From Escherichia coli (GTDB lineage: Bacteria > Pseudomonadota > Gammaproteobacteria > Enterobacterales > Enterobacteriaceae), in NCBI RefSeq assembly GCF_003334385.1, contig NZ_QOWN01000001.1: 64,000 bases of DNA; one strand, written 5' to 3'. Shown piece by piece: positions 4,545-64,000 of this stretch. Position numbers and translations under genes: made by a program. Below the pieces are notes generated by a model. The model saw nothing but the letters and a program-made list of their open reading frames with translations. It was not told the origin of the DNA and made no database searches. Position 1 is the stretch's first letter. Every line of letters starts with the position of its first letter.

Positions 4545-5234
4545 TTACCCTGCAGCCTGCATAGTAGCCCACCAGTCGGCATCAGCTTCGATCTCGCCTT
4601 GCTGATTGACGTGGGGATAAGGCAGGCCTTTGCGTTTTGCGACTTTCGCCAGCACCGGATAGCCGCCTTCAAACAACAGGCGTTGTTGCTCTGCTTCCGG
4701 CAACATGCTGTTTTCACGCAGGTACATGCCTGCATTTTGCCGCTGACGCTGGGCTTCGTAAAGAATGAGGGCTGAGGCAACGGAAACATTCAGCGACTGC
4801 ACCATGCCGATCATCGGAATGATGATGTCCTGATCCGCCAGGGCCAATGCTTCCTGCGTGATGCCCGTTTTCTCCTGTCCCATCAAAATGCAGGTCGGGC
4901 GAGTGTAATCAATTTCGCGGAAATCGACAGCGTTATCAGAAAGATGGGTTGCCAGAATCTGCATGCCCTGGCCTTTGAGATGAGCGACGGCATCGCCAAT
5001 GGTGCGGTGTGTTTTCACCTGTACCCAGCTGTTACTACCCGCCGCTGCCGAAGCCATGGTGCGCATGCGGCTACCAGGCCAGACGGCGTGAACTTCATGT
5101 ACGCCAACGGCATCTGCGGTACGAATAATCGCAGAAACGTTATGAGGTTTGTGGACCTGCTCCATGCAGACGGTCAGATCAGGCTGCCGCCTGGCGAGCA
5201 TTTCGCAGATGCGTGCATAACGTGTTGGGTTCAT
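4545..5234 (-). CDS. trmH: tRNA (Gm18) 2'-O-methyltransferase TrmH (SpoU)
   Basis: 229-aa ORF starting MNPTRYARICEMLARRQPDLTV, a SpoU-family methylase. It is the fourth gene of the gmk-rpoZ-spoT-trmH-recG run. Confidence 0.93.
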   Translation of the reverse strand: MNPTRYARICEMLARRQPDLTVCMEQVHKPHNVSAIIRTADAVGVHEVHAVWPGSRMRTMASAAAGSNSWVQVKTHRTIGDAVAHLKGQGMQILATHLSDNAVDFREIDYTRPTCILMGQEKTGITQEALALADQDIIIPMIGMVQSLNVSVASALILYEAQRQRQNAGMYLRENSMLPEAEQQRLLFEGGYPVLAKVAKRKGLPYPHVNQQGEIEADADWWATMQAAG

Positions 5235-5240
5235 AAAACA

Positions 5241-7349
5241 TTAATTTCGGTTTCGGGTGACTTTAATCACGTCTGGCATCACGCGGATTTTGCGCATGAT
5301 ATTCGCCAGATGCACACGGTCACGAGCGGTCAGACGAATAAAGGCGCTGTAGACGCGACCATCTTTCTCTTCCGTATTCAAACTTTGAATATTCGAAGTC
5401 GTGGTGTTAATTGCCGCCGTCAGGTTTGCCAGCGCACCCTGATGATTGAACATCTCCACCTTGATTTCGGTGATGAACTCCTGCGCCGTCTCTTTATCCC
5501 ATTCCACAGCCATAAACTTCTCTGGCTCTTTCTGGTAGCCACGGATATTACGGCAGGATTCATGGTGGATCACCAGACCTTTACCGGGGCTGACGTGGGC
5601 GATAATCGGGTCGCCAGGAATAGGGCGGCAGCATTTCGCAAAGGTGATCAGCACGCCATCGGCACCTTTAATGGGCAGATGTCCGTGGCTTTGGGTTGCC
5701 GGTGGAATGGAGGCGTCCCCATGTTGCAGATTTTTCGCGACCACCACGCTCATTGCGTTACCAAGTCCGATTTCTGCCAGCAGATCGTCAAGCGTTGCCA
5801 GCTTCATGCGATCCAGCTCGCGCTGAATATTTTCCTGCGGGATTTCATTCAGCTTACGGCTACCACCCAAAGCATGGTTGAGCAGACGACGGCCCAGGCT
5901 TACAGAATCATCACGCTTGAGGTTTTTCAGCAACTGACGAATTTTGGCGCGCGCTTTCGAGCTAACGACAAAGTTCAGCCAAGCGGCATTCGGGCGAGCG
6001 CCCGGAGCGGTAATGATTTCAACGGTTTGACCGCTGGTAAGCGGCTGCGACAGCGGGTAAGGCTGGCGGTCAACGCGTGCGCCCACGCAGGCATGACCGA
6101 TATCGGTATGCACTGCATAAGCGAAGTCGACGGGCGTTGCACCGGCAGGCAGCTCGACAATGCGCCCTTCCGGTGTGAAAACGTAAATCTCATCCGGGAA
6201 GAGATCGGATTTAACGCTCTCGATAAATTCAAACGAACTACCGGCGCTCTGTTGCAGCTCCAGCAGGCTTTGCATCCAGCGCTGGGCGCGGATTTGTGCG
6301 GTAGTACTGGTTTCGCCGTGCTCTTTATAAGCCCAGTGCGCGGCAACACCCATCTCCGCCATCTGGTCCATATCTTCGGTACGGATCTGGACCTCAACCG
6401 GCACACCGTGCGGGCCGATCATCGAGGTGTGCAAAGACTGATAGCCGTTCGCTTTTGGAATGGCGATATAGTCTTTCACGCGGCCCGGACGCGGCTTGTA
6501 CAGGCTGTGCATCTGGCCCAGCACGCGATAACAGGTGTCAGAATCATTGACGATCACGCGGAAAGCGTAGATGTCCATGATCGAGTGAAAACGCTGCTCT
6601 TTGAGCACCATTTTGCAGTAAATCGAATAAAGATGCTTCTCGCGACCACTGACGCGGCACGGTATTCCCGCTTCCTGCAAACGCCCTTCGATTTCAGAAA
6701 GAATCTTCTGGATCATCTCTTTACGGTTGCCGCGCGCGGCTTTCACCACTTCTTTGATTACGCGATAACGGTTGGGATACAGCGCCTCAAAACCCAGCTC
6801 TTCGAGTTCGGTTTTAATGTGGTGGATACCTAAACGGTGCGCCAGCGGGCTATAAATTTCGAGAGTTTCACGGGCGATGCGGCGACGTTTGTCCGGGCGA
6901 AGTGAGCCCAGCGTGCGCATGTTGTGGGTACGGTCGGCAAGTTTGATGAGGATGACGCGGATATCCTGCACCATCGCCATAATCATCTTGCGAAAGTTTT
7001 CGGCCTGCGCCTCTTTCTTATCGCGGAACTTGAGTTTATCAAGTTTCGACACCCCCTCTACCAGCTCGGCGACGCTTTTACCAAAAAGCTGTTCCATATC
7101 CTGGTAGGTGGCGGGAGTATCTTCAATCACGTCATGCAGCAGCGCCGCCATCAGCGTTTCATAGTCGAGTTTCATCTCGGCCAGAATGCAGGCAACCGCT
7201 ACCGGGTGCGTGATATAGGGTTCACCGCTTGAACGTGTTTGCCCCTCGTGAGCATCACGTGCAACGAGATACGCCTGCCGCAGACGCTTGATTTGGTCTT
7301 CCGGCAGGTAGGTTTGAATCAGTTGATTCAGGCTTTCAAACAGATACAA
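5241..7349 (-). CDS. spoT: bifunctional (p)ppGpp synthase/hydrolase SpoT
   Basis: 702-aa ORF starting MYLFESLNQLIQTYLPEDQIKRLRQAY. Has the HD domain motif HDVIEDT and lies downstream of rpoZ. Confidence 0.97.
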   Translation of the reverse strand: MYLFESLNQLIQTYLPEDQIKRLRQAYLVARDAHEGQTRSSGEPYITHPVAVACILAEMKLDYETLMAALLHDVIEDTPATYQDMEQLFGKSVAELVEGVSKLDKLKFRDKKEAQAENFRKMIMAMVQDIRVILIKLADRTHNMRTLGSLRPDKRRRIARETLEIYSPLAHRLGIHHIKTELEELGFEALYPNRYRVIKEVVKAARGNRKEMIQKILSEIEGRLQEAGIPCRVSGREKHLYSIYCKMVLKEQRFHSIMDIYAFRVIVNDSDTCYRVLGQMHSLYKPRPGRVKDYIAIPKANGYQSLHTSMIGPHGVPVEVQIRTEDMDQMAEMGVAAHWAYKEHGETSTTAQIRAQRWMQSLLELQQSAGSSFEFIESVKSDLFPDEIYVFTPEGRIVELPAGATPVDFAYAVHTDIGHACVGARVDRQPYPLSQPLTSGQTVEIITAPGARPNAAWLNFVVSSKARAKIRQLLKNLKRDDSVSLGRRLLNHALGGSRKLNEIPQENIQRELDRMKLATLDDLLAEIGLGNAMSVVVAKNLQHGDASIPPATQSHGHLPIKGADGVLITFAKCCRPIPGDPIIAHVSPGKGLVIHHESCRNIRGYQKEPEKFMAVEWDKETAQEFITEIKVEMFNHQGALANLTAAINTTTSNIQSLNTEEKDGRVYSAFIRLTARDRVHLANIMRKIRVMPDVIKVTRNRN

Positions 7350-59968: not shown

Positions 59969-60489
59969 TCATTCATCGATGCACTTTATAGAATCATCAA
60001 TGGCCATAATAGTACTATTAACTCTCAATTTTATATTTTTATCATCACTACAAATATTAACTGAATTTATATCAATGATTTTTTTATTCTTATCTTTTAT
60101 TTTATTTACTGTTTCAATGCAATCAGCGGCAAGTTGGAGTGGATTTAGATTTTTCAGATATGGTCTTATGATCTTTCCCTTACTTAATAAATAGCATGTA
60201 TAGGATTCGGAAAGTCCAGCATCTATTTTGTACCTCATTATATTAGATAAGGATGTGAGAAATTCCTTGTTATCATTCGCAGCCATATATGCCAGTCCGA
60301 GTTCAGCCTCTGCGGCCTTACAGGCAAAATAGCTTAGTGAACACGCTTTTCGTCCCTCTTTAGTACTGGCTGATATTAGTGCCCATAATATTGCTTTGTC
60401 TGCCAAATCTAACTCTCTCTGAAATTGTCTTGCAGTAACTGCACTCGCAGAAATAGAGAAAAAAATACAATTGTTAATAACCTTGCCAT
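59969..60489 (-). pseudogene. putative exported orphan immunity gene, split by a frameshift in a T7 run (probably corresponds to K-12 yibV)
   Basis: An ATG at 60489, 5 nt after the upstream toxin-remnant stop, opens MARLLTIVFFSLFLRVQLLQDNFRES*. The 145-codon ORF (59969..60406 in the track, TTG start) lies in another frame that is open back to 60508. One extra T in the T7 run (60459-60465) would fuse them to MARLLTIVFFFSISASAVTARQFQRELDLADKAILW..., which is signal-peptide-like. Confidence 0.5.
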
Positions 60490-60494
60490 ATTTT

Positions 60495-61095
60495 TTAGTC
60501 CGTAACTGTTAATGTGCTATCTGGCTCTGAAAATATTAACTCATTTAATTTTTGCATGTCATTAGATAAACCAGTTATACAACCCTCGGAACAGAATCGA
60601 GGTCCTAAAGACGGACCAAAAGCGTTTAAACAACTATGTATTGAAAATCCATTGCGATTATAAGTTCCTGTATTAACTGACGGTACTAATCGTATGCCGT
60701 CAGGTTTTCTATTGCTTGCTCCCGGGTCATTAACATTCCAACTCCATAGGCCTTGAGGTATTGGCCATCTATTTATAAATGTGTACAACGGGGATTATTT
60801 TTACATTGCATATTATTACCAGAAGCGACTGGAATACTAAGCACATCATAAAAATTATCATCACATGGTATATCTGAAACACACGAAAGCATACCTAAAG
60901 TTATGCTGTATAAACAGGTGGCTAATCCCAAGGGGATCGATTCCAGAAATCGGGTTCAACGGATACTGATAAAAATTCCACCTACCTTCCAGCCCAATCG
61001 GAGCCTGAGTGTTATACCGCCCCTGCTGCGGTTAATGTTACCGATAATAGTTATAGTACAGCCCTGATTCATCATCATACTACTGCTGCGGCAGT
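60495..61095 (-). pseudogene. degenerate orphan Rhs fragment: decayed core 3' end plus an L,D-transpeptidase-like (DUF2778/Tlde1-like) toxin C-terminus; probably K-12 yibS/yibW
   Basis: Minus-strand translation gives [53 protein letters not shown], with 3 in-frame stops. The next segment, [10 protein letters not shown]...ASGNNMQCKNNPRCTHL*, is in a shifted frame. The 97-codon ORF 60495..60788 follows (YTFINRWPIPQGLWSW...GFSIHSCLNAFGPSLGPRFCSEGCITG...). Confidence 0.65.
60952..61095 (-). repeat. Rhs core 3'-end repeat, copy 3 (degenerate)
   Basis: gggttcaacggatactgataaaaattcca... aligns with copies 1 and 2 with many substitutions and three in-frame stops. Confidence 0.75.
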
Positions 61096-61112: not shown

Positions 61113-61574
61113 TTACGGATTCTCCTTATTCTTCCTTCTATCCATTCGCTTTAGCTTTTTGAGCTCTTGAAGTTTGCTCTTTGCATCAATATTACCGTTA
61201 TTTACAGCGAATTCCATCCAATAAATAGCTCTATTCAAATTATAATATTCTGATAATGTTGGATTTGTATCTGATAAAAAGACCCCATAATTAAACTGCG
61301 CTGTAACATTCCCCTGAGATGCTGATCTTTCCAAGAATCGCAATTGTTTGTAAATGTTATTTTTAGTAAAGCAGTAATATTGATATAGTCGAAATGATGC
61401 CTCTGAATCACCATGTTGTGATTTATACTTCAGTTTCATCAACTTTTCTTCACTTAAATCATAGGTCATTGCTGTAGACCCCATCATACTTTCGTTTTGT
61501 TTTATTTTCACATCAGCACCATGCAATTGACAAATAAAAGAGAAATAAAAAAATAGTAACAAGCATGCTTTCAT
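61113..61574 (-). CDS. yibG: Sel1-like repeat protein YibG with N-terminal signal peptide; putative immunity partner of the YibJ C-terminus
   Basis: 153-aa ORF starting MKACLLLFFYFSFICQLHGADVKIK (signal-like). Sel1-type repeats are present (ASQGNVTAQFNYGVFL, AVNNGNIDAKSKLQEL). It starts 9 nt after the yibJ stop. Confidence 0.85.
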   Translation of the reverse strand: MKACLLLFFYFSFICQLHGADVKIKQNESMMGSTAMTYDLSEEKLMKLKYKSQHGDSEASFRLYQYYCFTKNNIYKQLRFLERSASQGNVTAQFNYGVFLSDTNPTLSEYYNLNRAIYWMEFAVNNGNIDAKSKLQELKKLKRMDRRKNKENP

Positions 61575-61585
61575 ACATCTACAAC

Positions 61586-62530
61586 CTATCTTATATCACT
61601 GGGTTTTTCTGGCGTACCTTGCATATTAGAAATGGGGTGCCCAGATGGCCCATATGTTATCCAATTACCAAGGTCTTTTGTTGTTATAGCCATTAGATCC
61701 TTATTTGAATTAAGGTTCGTTGGTGCTGTTAGCACTGTATCCATTTTTAACTTACCATTAGTTCCTCGCCCCCACCACGTCCATAGCGTGTCAGGTCCTA
61801 TTACATTTGTATGTAACTCTTTAGCTAATTGGCTAGCAAATGAATTTTGTCCTTTACCTGTATTACAAGAAAATAACCAAACTGTCATCCCATCTTTATA
61901 ATTCCCATCAAATTTAATTAGATATGCTAGATCTTTAGCTGTCATGATACTGCGCGTTGCGGATTCAATAGATGTGGGGGTACCATGCCCCCCGATTGTG
62001 AAAACGCCTGGGATATTAATCTCATCAGCTACAGAATGGATAAGATCACTTTCGGGGTATAAATTTATATCAACCAAACCTTGCGGATCTACATTTATGA
62101 CCGGATTCAACGGATACTGATAAAAATTCCATCCCCCCTTCAGTCCAATCGGATCCTGAGTGATATACCGCCCCAGCAGCGGGTCATAATAGCGGTGGCG
62201 GTTGTAATACAGGCCGGACTCCTCATCATACTGCTGACCCGGCAGGCGAATGAGCTGCTGCAGATGATGCGGGTTCTCATCACTCAGCAGGTTGCCCCAT
62301 TCATCATATTCTGCGCACCACGCTGTTGCCCCTTCCGTGCTGATGAGCGCCAGCGGCAGGCCGCGATGGTCGCAGTGGTACAGGTGGATTTTTCGCGCCG
62401 GCGTGTACACCGGGTCCATCTGGTTTTGCATCTGCTCCACGGTCAGGCCGCACGATGCCAGCCAGCGGCGGCTTTCCTCACTCACCCGGTCAGCCAGGAT
62501 TTCACTTTCCAGCCGGTCGAGCATCTGCAC
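61586..62530 (-). CDS. yibJ: orphan Rhs C-terminal fragment: last ~150 codons of the Rhs core, [13 protein letters not shown], then a 162-aa polymorphic toxin-like C-terminus
   Basis: 314-codon ORF from a GTG. The frame is open back to 62566, immediately after the yibA stop. It contains [52 protein letters not shown]. The true start, if the gene is expressed at all, is uncertain (an internal ATG gives [10 protein letters not shown]). Confidence 0.8.
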
Positions 62531-62566
62531 CGTGCCGGCGGGAATCCCCCACTGTGCATAGGCAAC
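62103..62566 (-). repeat. Rhs core 3'-end repeat, copy 2 (within yibJ)
   Basis: The first 145 nt are nearly identical to copy 1. The remainder encodes typical Rhs core sequence ([73 protein letters not shown]). Confidence 0.85.
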
Positions 62567-62571
62567 TCACG

Positions 62572-63414
62572 CTATGAACGCTTCAGCTTATCAATAGCGG
62601 AAGTTATAATTTCATTGTCATCAAACTTGTACAACATAGTATCTAAAACAGGAAGTAGCGTTTTATCACCTAATTCACCCGCAGCTTCAATGATATCATC
62701 ATAAACAGTATTTTTTTTTAACTCATCGCATAAAACAGATAAAACCCTTTTATCTTTTCTGTAGGAAAGTCCGATTATTGCTTCAATACGGACTTCCTCA
62801 TTTTTATCCTGAAGCATCTCCACAAAACAATCCCTAATATCACTATTATCATATTTATTGATATTTATTGCAAATGCGGCCCAGTTTCTGACATCTCCAT
62901 TTGGATCTTTTAACAGATTAATCAATAGTGGAATTGTTGCTTTATCATTGATAACAGAAATAGCAAATGCTGTAGCACGTCTGACATTAGTCGATTTATC
63001 AAAAGCAGTAATTTGAGATTGTTCTACTATTTTAGGTGAATAAATTGGGTTTTTCTTGCATCGCTGAGCCGTTGACTCGATTGCCGTAGCTCGAACGCAA
63101 GCGCTCTTATCATTCAATGCCATATTGTTCAAAATATTAAAAACATTATCTTCGCATTTTTTGCAAATTTTTATTTGCCCGAGTATAAATGCTCCGATAT
63201 CTCTACGGATATAATTTTTATCAGAGCAGAACTCAATTGCCAATCTAACAGCGTCTTGCCCACCTCTTAACTGTAATACTCTGGCAGATGAAATCCTTTT
63301 CAAGGAATTGTGATCATCAAGTAAGCGAAATAATTCATCATCATTTAGTTTCTTACATTGATTATATAAACCATACTCTTTACTTGCCTTTCTTTTCTGG
63401 TATGTATTTGACAT
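62572..63414 (-). CDS. yibA: HEAT-repeat protein YibA; cognate immunity candidate for the RhsA C-terminus
   Basis: ORF 62572..63429. The ATG at 63414, preceded by a ggagg SD, gives 280 aa starting MSNTYQKRKASKEYGLYNQCKK. It has repeated D-x-x-x-x-VR-x-x-A-x-x-A-L/I units (DKSACVRATAIES, STNVRRATAFAIS, DPNGDVRNWAAFAI, DKNEEVRIEAIIGLS). It starts 20 nt after the rhsA stop. Confidence 0.88.
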   Translation of the reverse strand: MSNTYQKRKASKEYGLYNQCKKLNDDELFRLLDDHNSLKRISSARVLQLRGGQDAVRLAIEFCSDKNYIRRDIGAFILGQIKICKKCEDNVFNILNNMALNDKSACVRATAIESTAQRCKKNPIYSPKIVEQSQITAFDKSTNVRRATAFAISVINDKATIPLLINLLKDPNGDVRNWAAFAININKYDNSDIRDCFVEMLQDKNEEVRIEAIIGLSYRKDKRVLSVLCDELKKNTVYDDIIEAAGELGDKTLLPVLDTMLYKFDDNEIITSAIDKLKRS

Positions 63415-63434
63415 TGCAGGAACCTCCACAAGGG

Positions 63435-64000
63435 CTATCTTTTTTTATCGTTTGACTGTCTGGAGTGACGACAATTCCAGGCTTTCTGTGTGCTTTTTGC
63501 ATCTTTAGCACTAATATCACCACAATCAATTAGTTCCTGAAGTACGTCACATCTGTCGGGTTTTTTCCCATCACTCCAGAATCTGTCATTTATTATGTCA
63601 TTGACACGATCAGTTATCCCTGTGTCTGCAACATTTCCACGAGAAGCTATCATTGTTATATCTAATGCTAGTCCCGGATTATTCAATATTAGAGAGTCAA
63701 ATATTCTTTGTGATGCTGTATCGTTCCACCATTTTGTCAATGCTTTTGCAGCATTATCATCTGCTTGCTGCTGTGCAGGGCTTTTGGGCCATGGAATTGG
63801 CAAGGGGAATGGTCTAGGAAAAACTTCTAACCCCAGAGGATCTGTATTCGTAACTGGATTCAACGGATACTGATAAAAATTCCATCCCCCCTTCAGCCCA
63901 ATCGGATCCTGAGTGATATACCGCCCCTGCAGCGGGTCATAATAGCGGTGGCGGTTGTAATACAGGCCGGACTCCTCATCATACTGCTGCCCCGGCAGGC
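63435..64000 (-). CDS. rhsA: RhsA, 3' end only (end of conserved core, [13 protein letters not shown], 130-aa C-terminal toxin-like extension); gene continues beyond the right edge
   Basis: The minus frame is open to the window edge and reads [67 protein letters not shown]...[12 protein letters not shown]-rich core is followed by an AT-rich tip. Confidence 0.9.
63856..64000 (-). repeat. Rhs core 3'-end repeat, copy 1 (within rhsA)
   Basis: 145 nt that differ at only 3 positions from 62103-62247. Confidence 0.9.

Follow-up and report, generated by a model that had tools for sequence, protein, structure and literature searches.

What does a toxin-like domain do once it has lost the protein that would carry it, and in which compartment would it act? 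The question is raised by yibJ, an orphan Rhs fragment, and by its small neighbour yibG on a 64,000-nucleotide stretch of Escherichia coli DNA (the window; NCBI RefSeq assembly GCF_003334385.1, contig NZ_QOWN01000001.1), which covers the mtlA-yibI-yibH to rhsA region in reverse orientation. We analysed the pair computationally and consider it probable that yibJ-yibG is an orphan cassette encoding a clan-CD protease toxin and an exported Sel1-type immunity protein, with the toxin acting in the periplasm. A preliminary description, made from the letters of the window, had pointed to a clan-CD-like order of His before Cys in the 162-residue tip that follows the DPQGL motif of YibJ. Dyad conservation, fold matches and weak matches to the Pfam family DUF4347 support this layout.

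The tip contains the string GVFTIGGHG, which carries His182, and 40 residues further on Cys222 (VWLFSC/LFSCNTG), the only Cys of the tip. Residue numbers are those of the mechanically listed open reading frame (ORF), a fragment truncated at its 5' end; in tip numbering, His182 is His30 and Cys222 is Cys70. The strings, coordinates and spacing first reported for the tip proved exact, and the placing of each residue at the end of a β-strand was borne out by the AlphaFold model, in which strand 24-28 ends two residues ahead of His30 and strand 64-68 two residues ahead of Cys70. An exhaustive HMMER search for the tip domain returned 562 cluster representatives at E <= 1e-3. Conservation was scored on the best 150 of the 562 listed together with earlier close relatives, which amounted to 165 proteins and 184 usable domain copies. 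The His is kept in 175 copies, the following Gly in 178 and the Cys in 176. No polar positions apart from His-Gly and Cys come close to invariance; the other well-conserved positions are hydrophobic or small. Ser or Ala directly precedes the Cys in 170 of the 184 copies, in line with the 'Ala-Cys' motif of clan CD, and the family consensus reads HG ... L-x-[SA]-C. Because the His...Cys pattern is retained across these copies, it is more than chance. His30, Leu67, Cys70 and Ala80 are invariant in alignment A1 (41 sequences, 21-53% identity), whose profile, in a protein homologue search, recovered close enterobacterial relatives only. Both dyad residues are present in 125 of 127 C-terminal domain copies; among the internal degenerate copies of giant multi-copy proteins, seven of eight have lost His and Cys together and one has lost a single residue. 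Such joint loss or retention is the pattern that a functional dyad would give.

The modelled tip has the α/β/α sandwich common to caspases, legumain, gingipains, C11, C80 and separase. The highest fold match was Pseudomonas aeruginosa Tce1, a DUF4347 protein (9qpe_G, score 8.7), followed by the cysteine protease domains (CPDs) of Vibrio cholerae RtxA (3fzy, 8.1) and Clostridioides difficile TcdA (3ho6, 7.7) and by Kgp (7.2). TcdB, CHAT proteases, asparaginyl endopeptidase and legumain, glycosylphosphatidylinositol (GPI) transamidase, C11 and RgpB scored from 6.7 to 5.2, and caspase-9, metacaspases and separase ranked lower. The Foldseek ranking agrees, weakly: the V. cholerae CPD comes first (E = 0.021, probability 0.95, template modelling (TM) score ~0.35), with nitrilase-superfamily noise mixed in. 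At the level of profiles, 15 of 41 relatives show weak matches to DUF4347 (PF14252), in one register at profile positions ~54-134 of 164. One relative exceeds the gathering score (26.3 bits against a cut-off of 24.6), and the YibJ tip itself does not match; these cross-matches would fit a sister family. A few other relatives match Peptidase_C13, Peptidase_C80 (PF11713) or CHAT; C80 is matched by two of the 41 (best E 1e-3) and not by the YibJ tip at E <= 1. A sub-threshold profile alignment places His30-Gly on the 'HG' of legumain and Cys70 on its 'EACESG', positions that we take to be the catalytic His148 and Cys189. Juxtaposition of the predicted His182/Cys222 pair is expected from the β-α-β topology and from this alignment to the legumain dyad. 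The tip is supported as a domain of the clan-CD (caspase-haemoglobinase) fold, of the Tox-Caspase, C80- and DUF4347-like kind.

The HG and the Cys could in principle belong to an α/β-hydrolase-type enzyme, the alternative offered in the preliminary description, or to a nitrilase-type (Cys-Glu-Lys) amidase, and nitrilases did surface as Foldseek noise. We give these readings almost no credence. They fall away because no α/β hydrolase appears among the fold matches, near the top or below, and because Glu, Lys, Ser and Asp are nowhere conserved in the family; the Pfam cross-matches are to clan-CD families. A profile-search match to the adhesin domain of Kgp was discarded as spurious, and 'C80' in a Stenotrophomonas preprint turned out to be a cluster label and not the peptidase family. 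The YibJ pseudogene carries the recent RefSeq label 'DUF8616 domain-containing protein', from the Prokaryotic Genome Annotation Pipeline (PGAP); a literature search for the name DUF8616 found nothing.

Two groups of known proteins come closest to the tip. The C80 peptidases of MARTX toxins and TcdA/TcdB (3fzy, 3eeb, 3ho6) share the fold core and the order His-Gly ... Cys, each after a β-strand. They differ in being internal modules of 200-250 residues that cleave themselves after Leu once inositol hexakisphosphate (InsP6) has activated them, through a basic pocket and β-flap, in the eukaryotic cytosol, whereas the YibJ tip is a terminal domain with an immunity protein, is 40-90 residues shorter and gave no evidence of an InsP6 site. 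Tce1 (PA0256) and Tce2 (PA2372) are DUF4347, CPD-like effectors of the P. aeruginosa H3 type VI secretion system (T6SS; PDB 9qpe; PMC13323088, PMC8262886), described in 2021 and 2026. They travel as cargo in the Hcp lumen and are proposed to act on eukaryotes, whereas the YibJ tip is an Rhs tip; their His and Cys lie 50-54 residues apart, against 40 (PMC13323088, PMC8262886).

The fold assignment is not new. Zhang et al. (2012) defined Tox-Caspase, an α/β domain folded like a caspase in which His and Cys are conserved; it is mostly a releasing peptidase, sometimes the terminal toxin of γ-proteobacterial Rhs/T6SS proteins, and also forms arrays with some degenerate copies in giant actinobacterial (Streptomyces) proteins (PMC3482391). 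The YibJ-type domain is likewise both Rhs-terminal and arrayed in giants with degenerate copies, and YibJ-YibG is an uncharacterised member of this already described toxin class. The same study tied Imm57 to Tox-LD-peptidase and Tox-Caspase in γ-proteobacteria (PMC3482391), a linkage that fits the YibJ locus, where the third cassette contains an Imm57 gene. It differs from our results in listing Imm36 and Imm57 and no exported Sel1-like repeat protein, and does not address the compartment (PMC3482391). yibJ had no match in one supplementary file of that work.

Since most Tox-Caspase versions were so classed (PMC3482391), the tip might be a self-processing ('releasing') peptidase only and itself non-toxic, a reading that would also suit the five to seven domain copies found between other modules in giant proteins. 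We think this quite improbable. In Rhs proteins the domain is the last one, with only ~1-60 residues beyond it; the Rhs core protease already frees the tip; and an immunity gene dedicated to the domain co-varies with it. The giant proteins in question (P0025, P0028, P0029, P0031, P0033, P0043 and P0052; 3100-6800 amino acids (aa)) carry 5-7 copies of the tip domain, some of which lack both His and Cys, and their composition suggests an actinobacterial origin. P0028, the sole giant protein scanned, also has four PI3_PI4_kinase-like stretches. They resemble polyproteins that combine several effectors with repeats of a self-cleaving module.

The compartment is suggested by YibG. The gene begins MKACLLLFFYFSFICQLHGAD, 11 nt past the yibJ stop codon. 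At the N-terminus of its product, MK forms a basic n-region, the hydrophobic core spans 13 residues and LHG precedes AD; the 12-residue Kyte-Doolittle mean is 2.5, and orthologues keep a hydrophobic leader although its sequence drifts. A model computed from eight enterobacterial sequences consists of a low-confidence helix (residues 3-15), a disordered segment (16-33) and paired helices over the repeat domain, where the predicted local distance difference test (pLDDT) lies between 84 and 97. The repeat signature and the paired-helix solenoid identify YibG as a Sel1-like repeat protein, and both the repeats and the hydrophobic N-terminal leader had been recognised correctly at first sight. Partners were surveyed at 67 metagenomic loci (third alignment) and at genome loci (narrow alignment A2: 4). 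The next ORF starts -3 to 27 nt from the toxin stop, with a single exception at 71 nt (L036/L039). Pfam Sel1 matched 7 of 12 partners, and the alignment shows the motif GDxxAxFxLYxYYxF in most partners from distant loci; a few partners have other folds yet carry leaders. Of 16 distinct partners, drawn from several bacterial groups, 15 have a leader or lipobox (a lipobox in four), against 9 of 51 long ORFs of the window scored by the same hydrophobicity rule (P ~7e-11).

YibG is therefore likely, as we infer from these leaders, to be an exported Sel1-like immunity protein. By the usual logic of T6SS effectors the immunity protein sits where the toxin acts, and the predicted site of action of the tip is therefore the periplasm; the single Cys of the tip also counts toward this compartment. 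The preliminary description had called the periplasm unusual for such a fold, which holds among antibacterial T6SS toxins but not for bacterial clan-CD enzymes generally. Among the structural matches of YibG is PA5086, a Sel1-like repeat T6SS immunity protein (PMC7216683). PA5086, PA5087 and PA5088 differ in guarding against the phospholipase D PldB/Tle5b rather than a protease and in being larger, and their sequence kinship with YibG is at the level of the repeats only.

The remainder of YibJ suggests how such a pair could be stored and used. Residues 1-152 match positions 1111-1261 of the 1261-position NCBIfam model RHS_core (E = 2.1e-90), and the same remnant matches Rhs_assc_core (E = 3.7e-25) and Pfam RHS (E = 1.6e-15). 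The guanine-plus-cytosine (GC) content drops from 55-63% in the core to 31-44% downstream, and DPQGL together with this fall is a classic Rhs core/tip junction. yibJ lacks the 5' part of an rhs gene and has pseudogene status in PGAP ('incomplete; missing N-terminus'). The end of a core, a DPxGL motif, a GC drop, a small downstream gene and the occurrence of the same tip on full-length Rhs elsewhere are all found here, as in an orphan Rhs cassette, and the core remnant supplies the homology needed to move the cassette onto a full-length rhs gene by recombination.

In strains with the tip on a full-length Rhs protein, the Rhs shell would enclose the tip, the aspartyl autoprotease of the core would sever it behind DPxGL, and the T6SS would carry it into a neighbouring cell. 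Shell enclosure, release at DPxGL and T6SS delivery are established Rhs biology. In the periplasm of the target cell, the predicted His182/Cys222 dyad would cleave an envelope substrate, and Sec-exported YibG would bind and block the toxin there through its Sel1-like repeats. In K-12-type strains the cassette, without Rhs shell and delivery/secretion signal, would not deploy the toxin; it may serve as a recombination reserve, while YibG would guard against neighbours armed with the tip. The fold, the dyad conservation, the synteny, the Sel1-like nature of YibG and the exported character of the partners are observed here, whereas catalysis, compartment and delivery route are predictions.

Several points weigh against a clan-CD toxin acting in the periplasm. 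The YibJ tip matched no model in Pfam (E <= 1), NCBIfam or PADLOC, and comparison with PDB sequences by phmmer and two family profiles gave no significant match. C80 domains need InsP6, which is absent from bacteria. The leaders were called by a hydrophobicity rule combined with conservation. The Sel1-like partner of L036/L039 (GNSQAASKLANYFAFY motif, L039 1815-2195) has no visible leader, and in enterohaemorrhagic E. coli (EHEC) the annotated start of YibG at Val22 drops the leader. Tce1 and Tce2 have no known immunity gene, and Tce2 shows Cys-dependent toxicity in yeast (PMC13323088, PMC8262886); PA0256 is reported to be toxic when produced in the E. coli cytoplasm. The effector toxicities, the leaderless partner and the leaderless EHEC annotation would suit a toxin that acts in the bacterial cytoplasm or in eukaryotic cells, the N-terminus of YibG being irrelevant or a cytoplasm-facing membrane anchor. 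That is improbable in our judgement, given leaders or lipoboxes in all but one of the distinct partners across several bacterial groups, a dedicated adjacent immunity gene that points to a bacterial target, and the retention of the immunity gene alone in Salmonella. Nor is an InsP6 pocket evident in the tip. As to these two cases, the L036/L039 partner follows a toxin ORF of only 157 aa, and an in-frame start further upstream is not evident. EHEC z5018 ('RhsAI', 132 aa) is annotated from an internal GTG at Val22 (61509-61511 in the window) as against the ATG at 61572-61574; the hydrophobic leader kept in all orthologues favours the upstream ATG.

Another explanation accepts both fold and compartment but not proteolysis of proteins: the dyad would be that of an amidase or transpeptidase, which would break or re-form bonds in the stem peptides of peptidoglycan or in the linkage between Lpp and peptidoglycan. 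Acyl transfer is known from clan-CD enzymes such as legumain ligases and GPI transamidase, and enzymes of both types occur among the fold matches of the tip. The cell wall or the membranes are the target of most known periplasmic T6SS toxins, and the next cassette at the locus has an L,D-transpeptidase-like (Tlde1/YkuD) tip. The closest matches of the tip (C80, DUF4347) are endopeptidases, however, its sequence indicates no cell-wall-binding element, and we know of no clan-CD member that acts on peptidoglycan, so we regard this explanation as unlikely. The protease reading has one partial parallel in the VgrG2b C-terminal metallopeptidase of P. aeruginosa, reportedly a toxin that the T6SS delivers to the periplasm and that disturbs the shape of bacterial cells (PMC6899460); it is a zinc metallopeptidase fused to VgrG, unlike the YibJ tip in fold and delivery.

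The distribution of the pair spans a probable weapon, a putative reserve and orphan immunity. Tip and yibG occur together in 3508 of 5426 complete E. coli genomes (~65%). In E. coli AW1.7 the tip is on a 1409-aa full-length Rhs protein with yibG directly after it, and the Ntox34/yibA pair is absent; an Enterobacter genome encodes a 1405-aa Rhs with a tip ~80% identical, followed by a yibG homologue. A primer specific for rhsA of EHEC EDL933, from a 2020 study, matches positions 61971-61989 of the window and spans the His codon. Because this rhsA-specific primer lies within the tip, EHEC RhsA carries this tip. The 2020 study modelled the EDL933 RhsA tip on 3HO6 (TM 0.73), read the match as 'GTPase inhibition' and recognised Sel1-like repeats in the partner. 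Its reading is mistaken, as 3HO6 is the protease domain of TcdA and not the GTPase-inactivating domain. Salmonella salamae has a homologous pair (47% identity for the toxin, 41% for the partner), and toxin-partner pairs also occur in a Kiritimatiellales genome and in many metagenomes. Many S. enterica, represented by a cluster of 605 sequences, have an internal deletion of the toxin next to an intact immunity gene, which is the signature expected of an orphan immunity gene kept by selection. Three S. enterica loci (L077-L079, ~4797-5435) read in order a yibA-like HEAT gene, a 200-bp scar and an intact exported yibG homologue; in the scar, a stub of the Rhs core runs directly into the final 16 codons of the tip. 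E. coli variants P0017, P0018 and P0020 (the P0020 cluster has 54 members) have a one-G deletion in the six-G run next to the His182 codon, which alters the end of the protein; repeated slippage that disables the toxin could explain it, as could sequencing error.

Coordinates of the locus are collected in Table 1. The resident rhsA ends in an Ntox34 tip whose pair is YibA (62572-63863), and YibA has no leader; the Ntox34/YibA pair probably acts in the cytoplasm, unlike the adjoining yibJ/yibG. Downstream of yibG lies a third, decayed Rhs cassette (59969-61080, minus strand). Plus-strand ORFs across the same stretch (61632-61901, 61944-62120 and others) were set aside as shadows of the minus-strand genes. 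Genomic SELEX (systematic evolution of ligands by exponential enrichment) placed RpoD holoenzyme sites in the yibA-yibJ and yibJ-yibG intervals (PMC3946193), which hints at own promoters for the orphan cassette and its immunity gene (61575-62571). A promoter scan at yibJ/yibG predicted sites no more numerous than in shuffled sequence.

Table 1 Features of the yibJ-yibG locus and its neighbours, in window positions
Feature	Position	Strand	Remarks
YibJ ORF (orphan Rhs fragment)	61586..62530	-	314 aa, mechanical listing from a GTG codon
Rhs-core remnant of YibJ, residues 1-152	62075..62530	-	ends in DPQGL
DPQGL, YibJ residues 148-152	62075-62089	-	
Toxin tip, YibJ residues 153-314 (162 aa + stop codon)	61586..62074	-	small α/β domain; residues 153-314 at 61589-62074; DUF8616 in PGAP
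His182 codon (CAT), then Gly183	61985..61987	-	predicted general base of the catalytic dyad
Cys222 codon (TGT), inside LFSCNTG	61865..61867	-	predicted nucleophile
Six-G run (six C on the plus strand), encodes Gly180-Gly181	61988..61993	-	adjoins the His182 codon
yibG, putative cognate immunity gene	61113..61574	-	153 aa; leader, disordered linker and Sel1-like repeat domain
YibG predicted Sec signal peptide, residues 1-19 MKACLLLFFYFSFICQLHG	61518..61574	-	cleavage predicted before AD
YibG Sel1-like repeat domain, residues ~42-151	61122..61451	-	motif GDxxAxFxLYxYYxF ... AQYNxG ... AIYW
End of rhsA with Ntox34 tip	63435-63863	-	Ntox34 E 5e-44
yibA	62572-63429	-	HEAT-repeat partner of the rhsA Ntox34 tip
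Rhs-core stub of third cassette	~60860-61080	-	internal stop
97-aa tip of third cassette, IHS...SEGCI	60495-60788	-	weak Tlde1_dom and YkuD match (L,D-transpeptidase-type toxin)
Imm57 gene of third cassette	59969-60406	-	frameshifted; E 1.9e-48

What is added here to the described toxin class is a consistent family of exported Sel1-like immunity proteins, the periplasmic prediction, and the evidence for the dyad and for orphan immunity. Chances seem evenly balanced that the tip family is the first antibacterial clan-CD protease toxin of the periplasm, free of InsP6, held by a secreted Sel1-repeat inhibitor and directed at an envelope protein or linkage, the cutting of which would damage the cell. 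We are equally divided on the same reading's picture of a large family, counted in the cluster representatives above, that supplies Rhs tips in Proteobacteria and Kiritimatiellales and modules in actinobacterial-looking giants. The published likeness of EHEC RhsA to 'toxin A' is corrected to a likeness to its protease domain, and the annotated start of the EHEC immunity gene removes a predicted export signal. yibJ and yibG, still 'y' genes of E. coli K-12, now have a testable predicted function and two named putative catalytic residues. Known periplasm-acting T6SS toxins are mostly cell-wall hydrolases, lipases and pore formers, with one metallopeptidase. If the tip does act in the periplasm, it would add a protease class to these few toxins, would be an antibacterial counterpart to Tce1/Tce2 and would point to a vulnerable target in the envelope.

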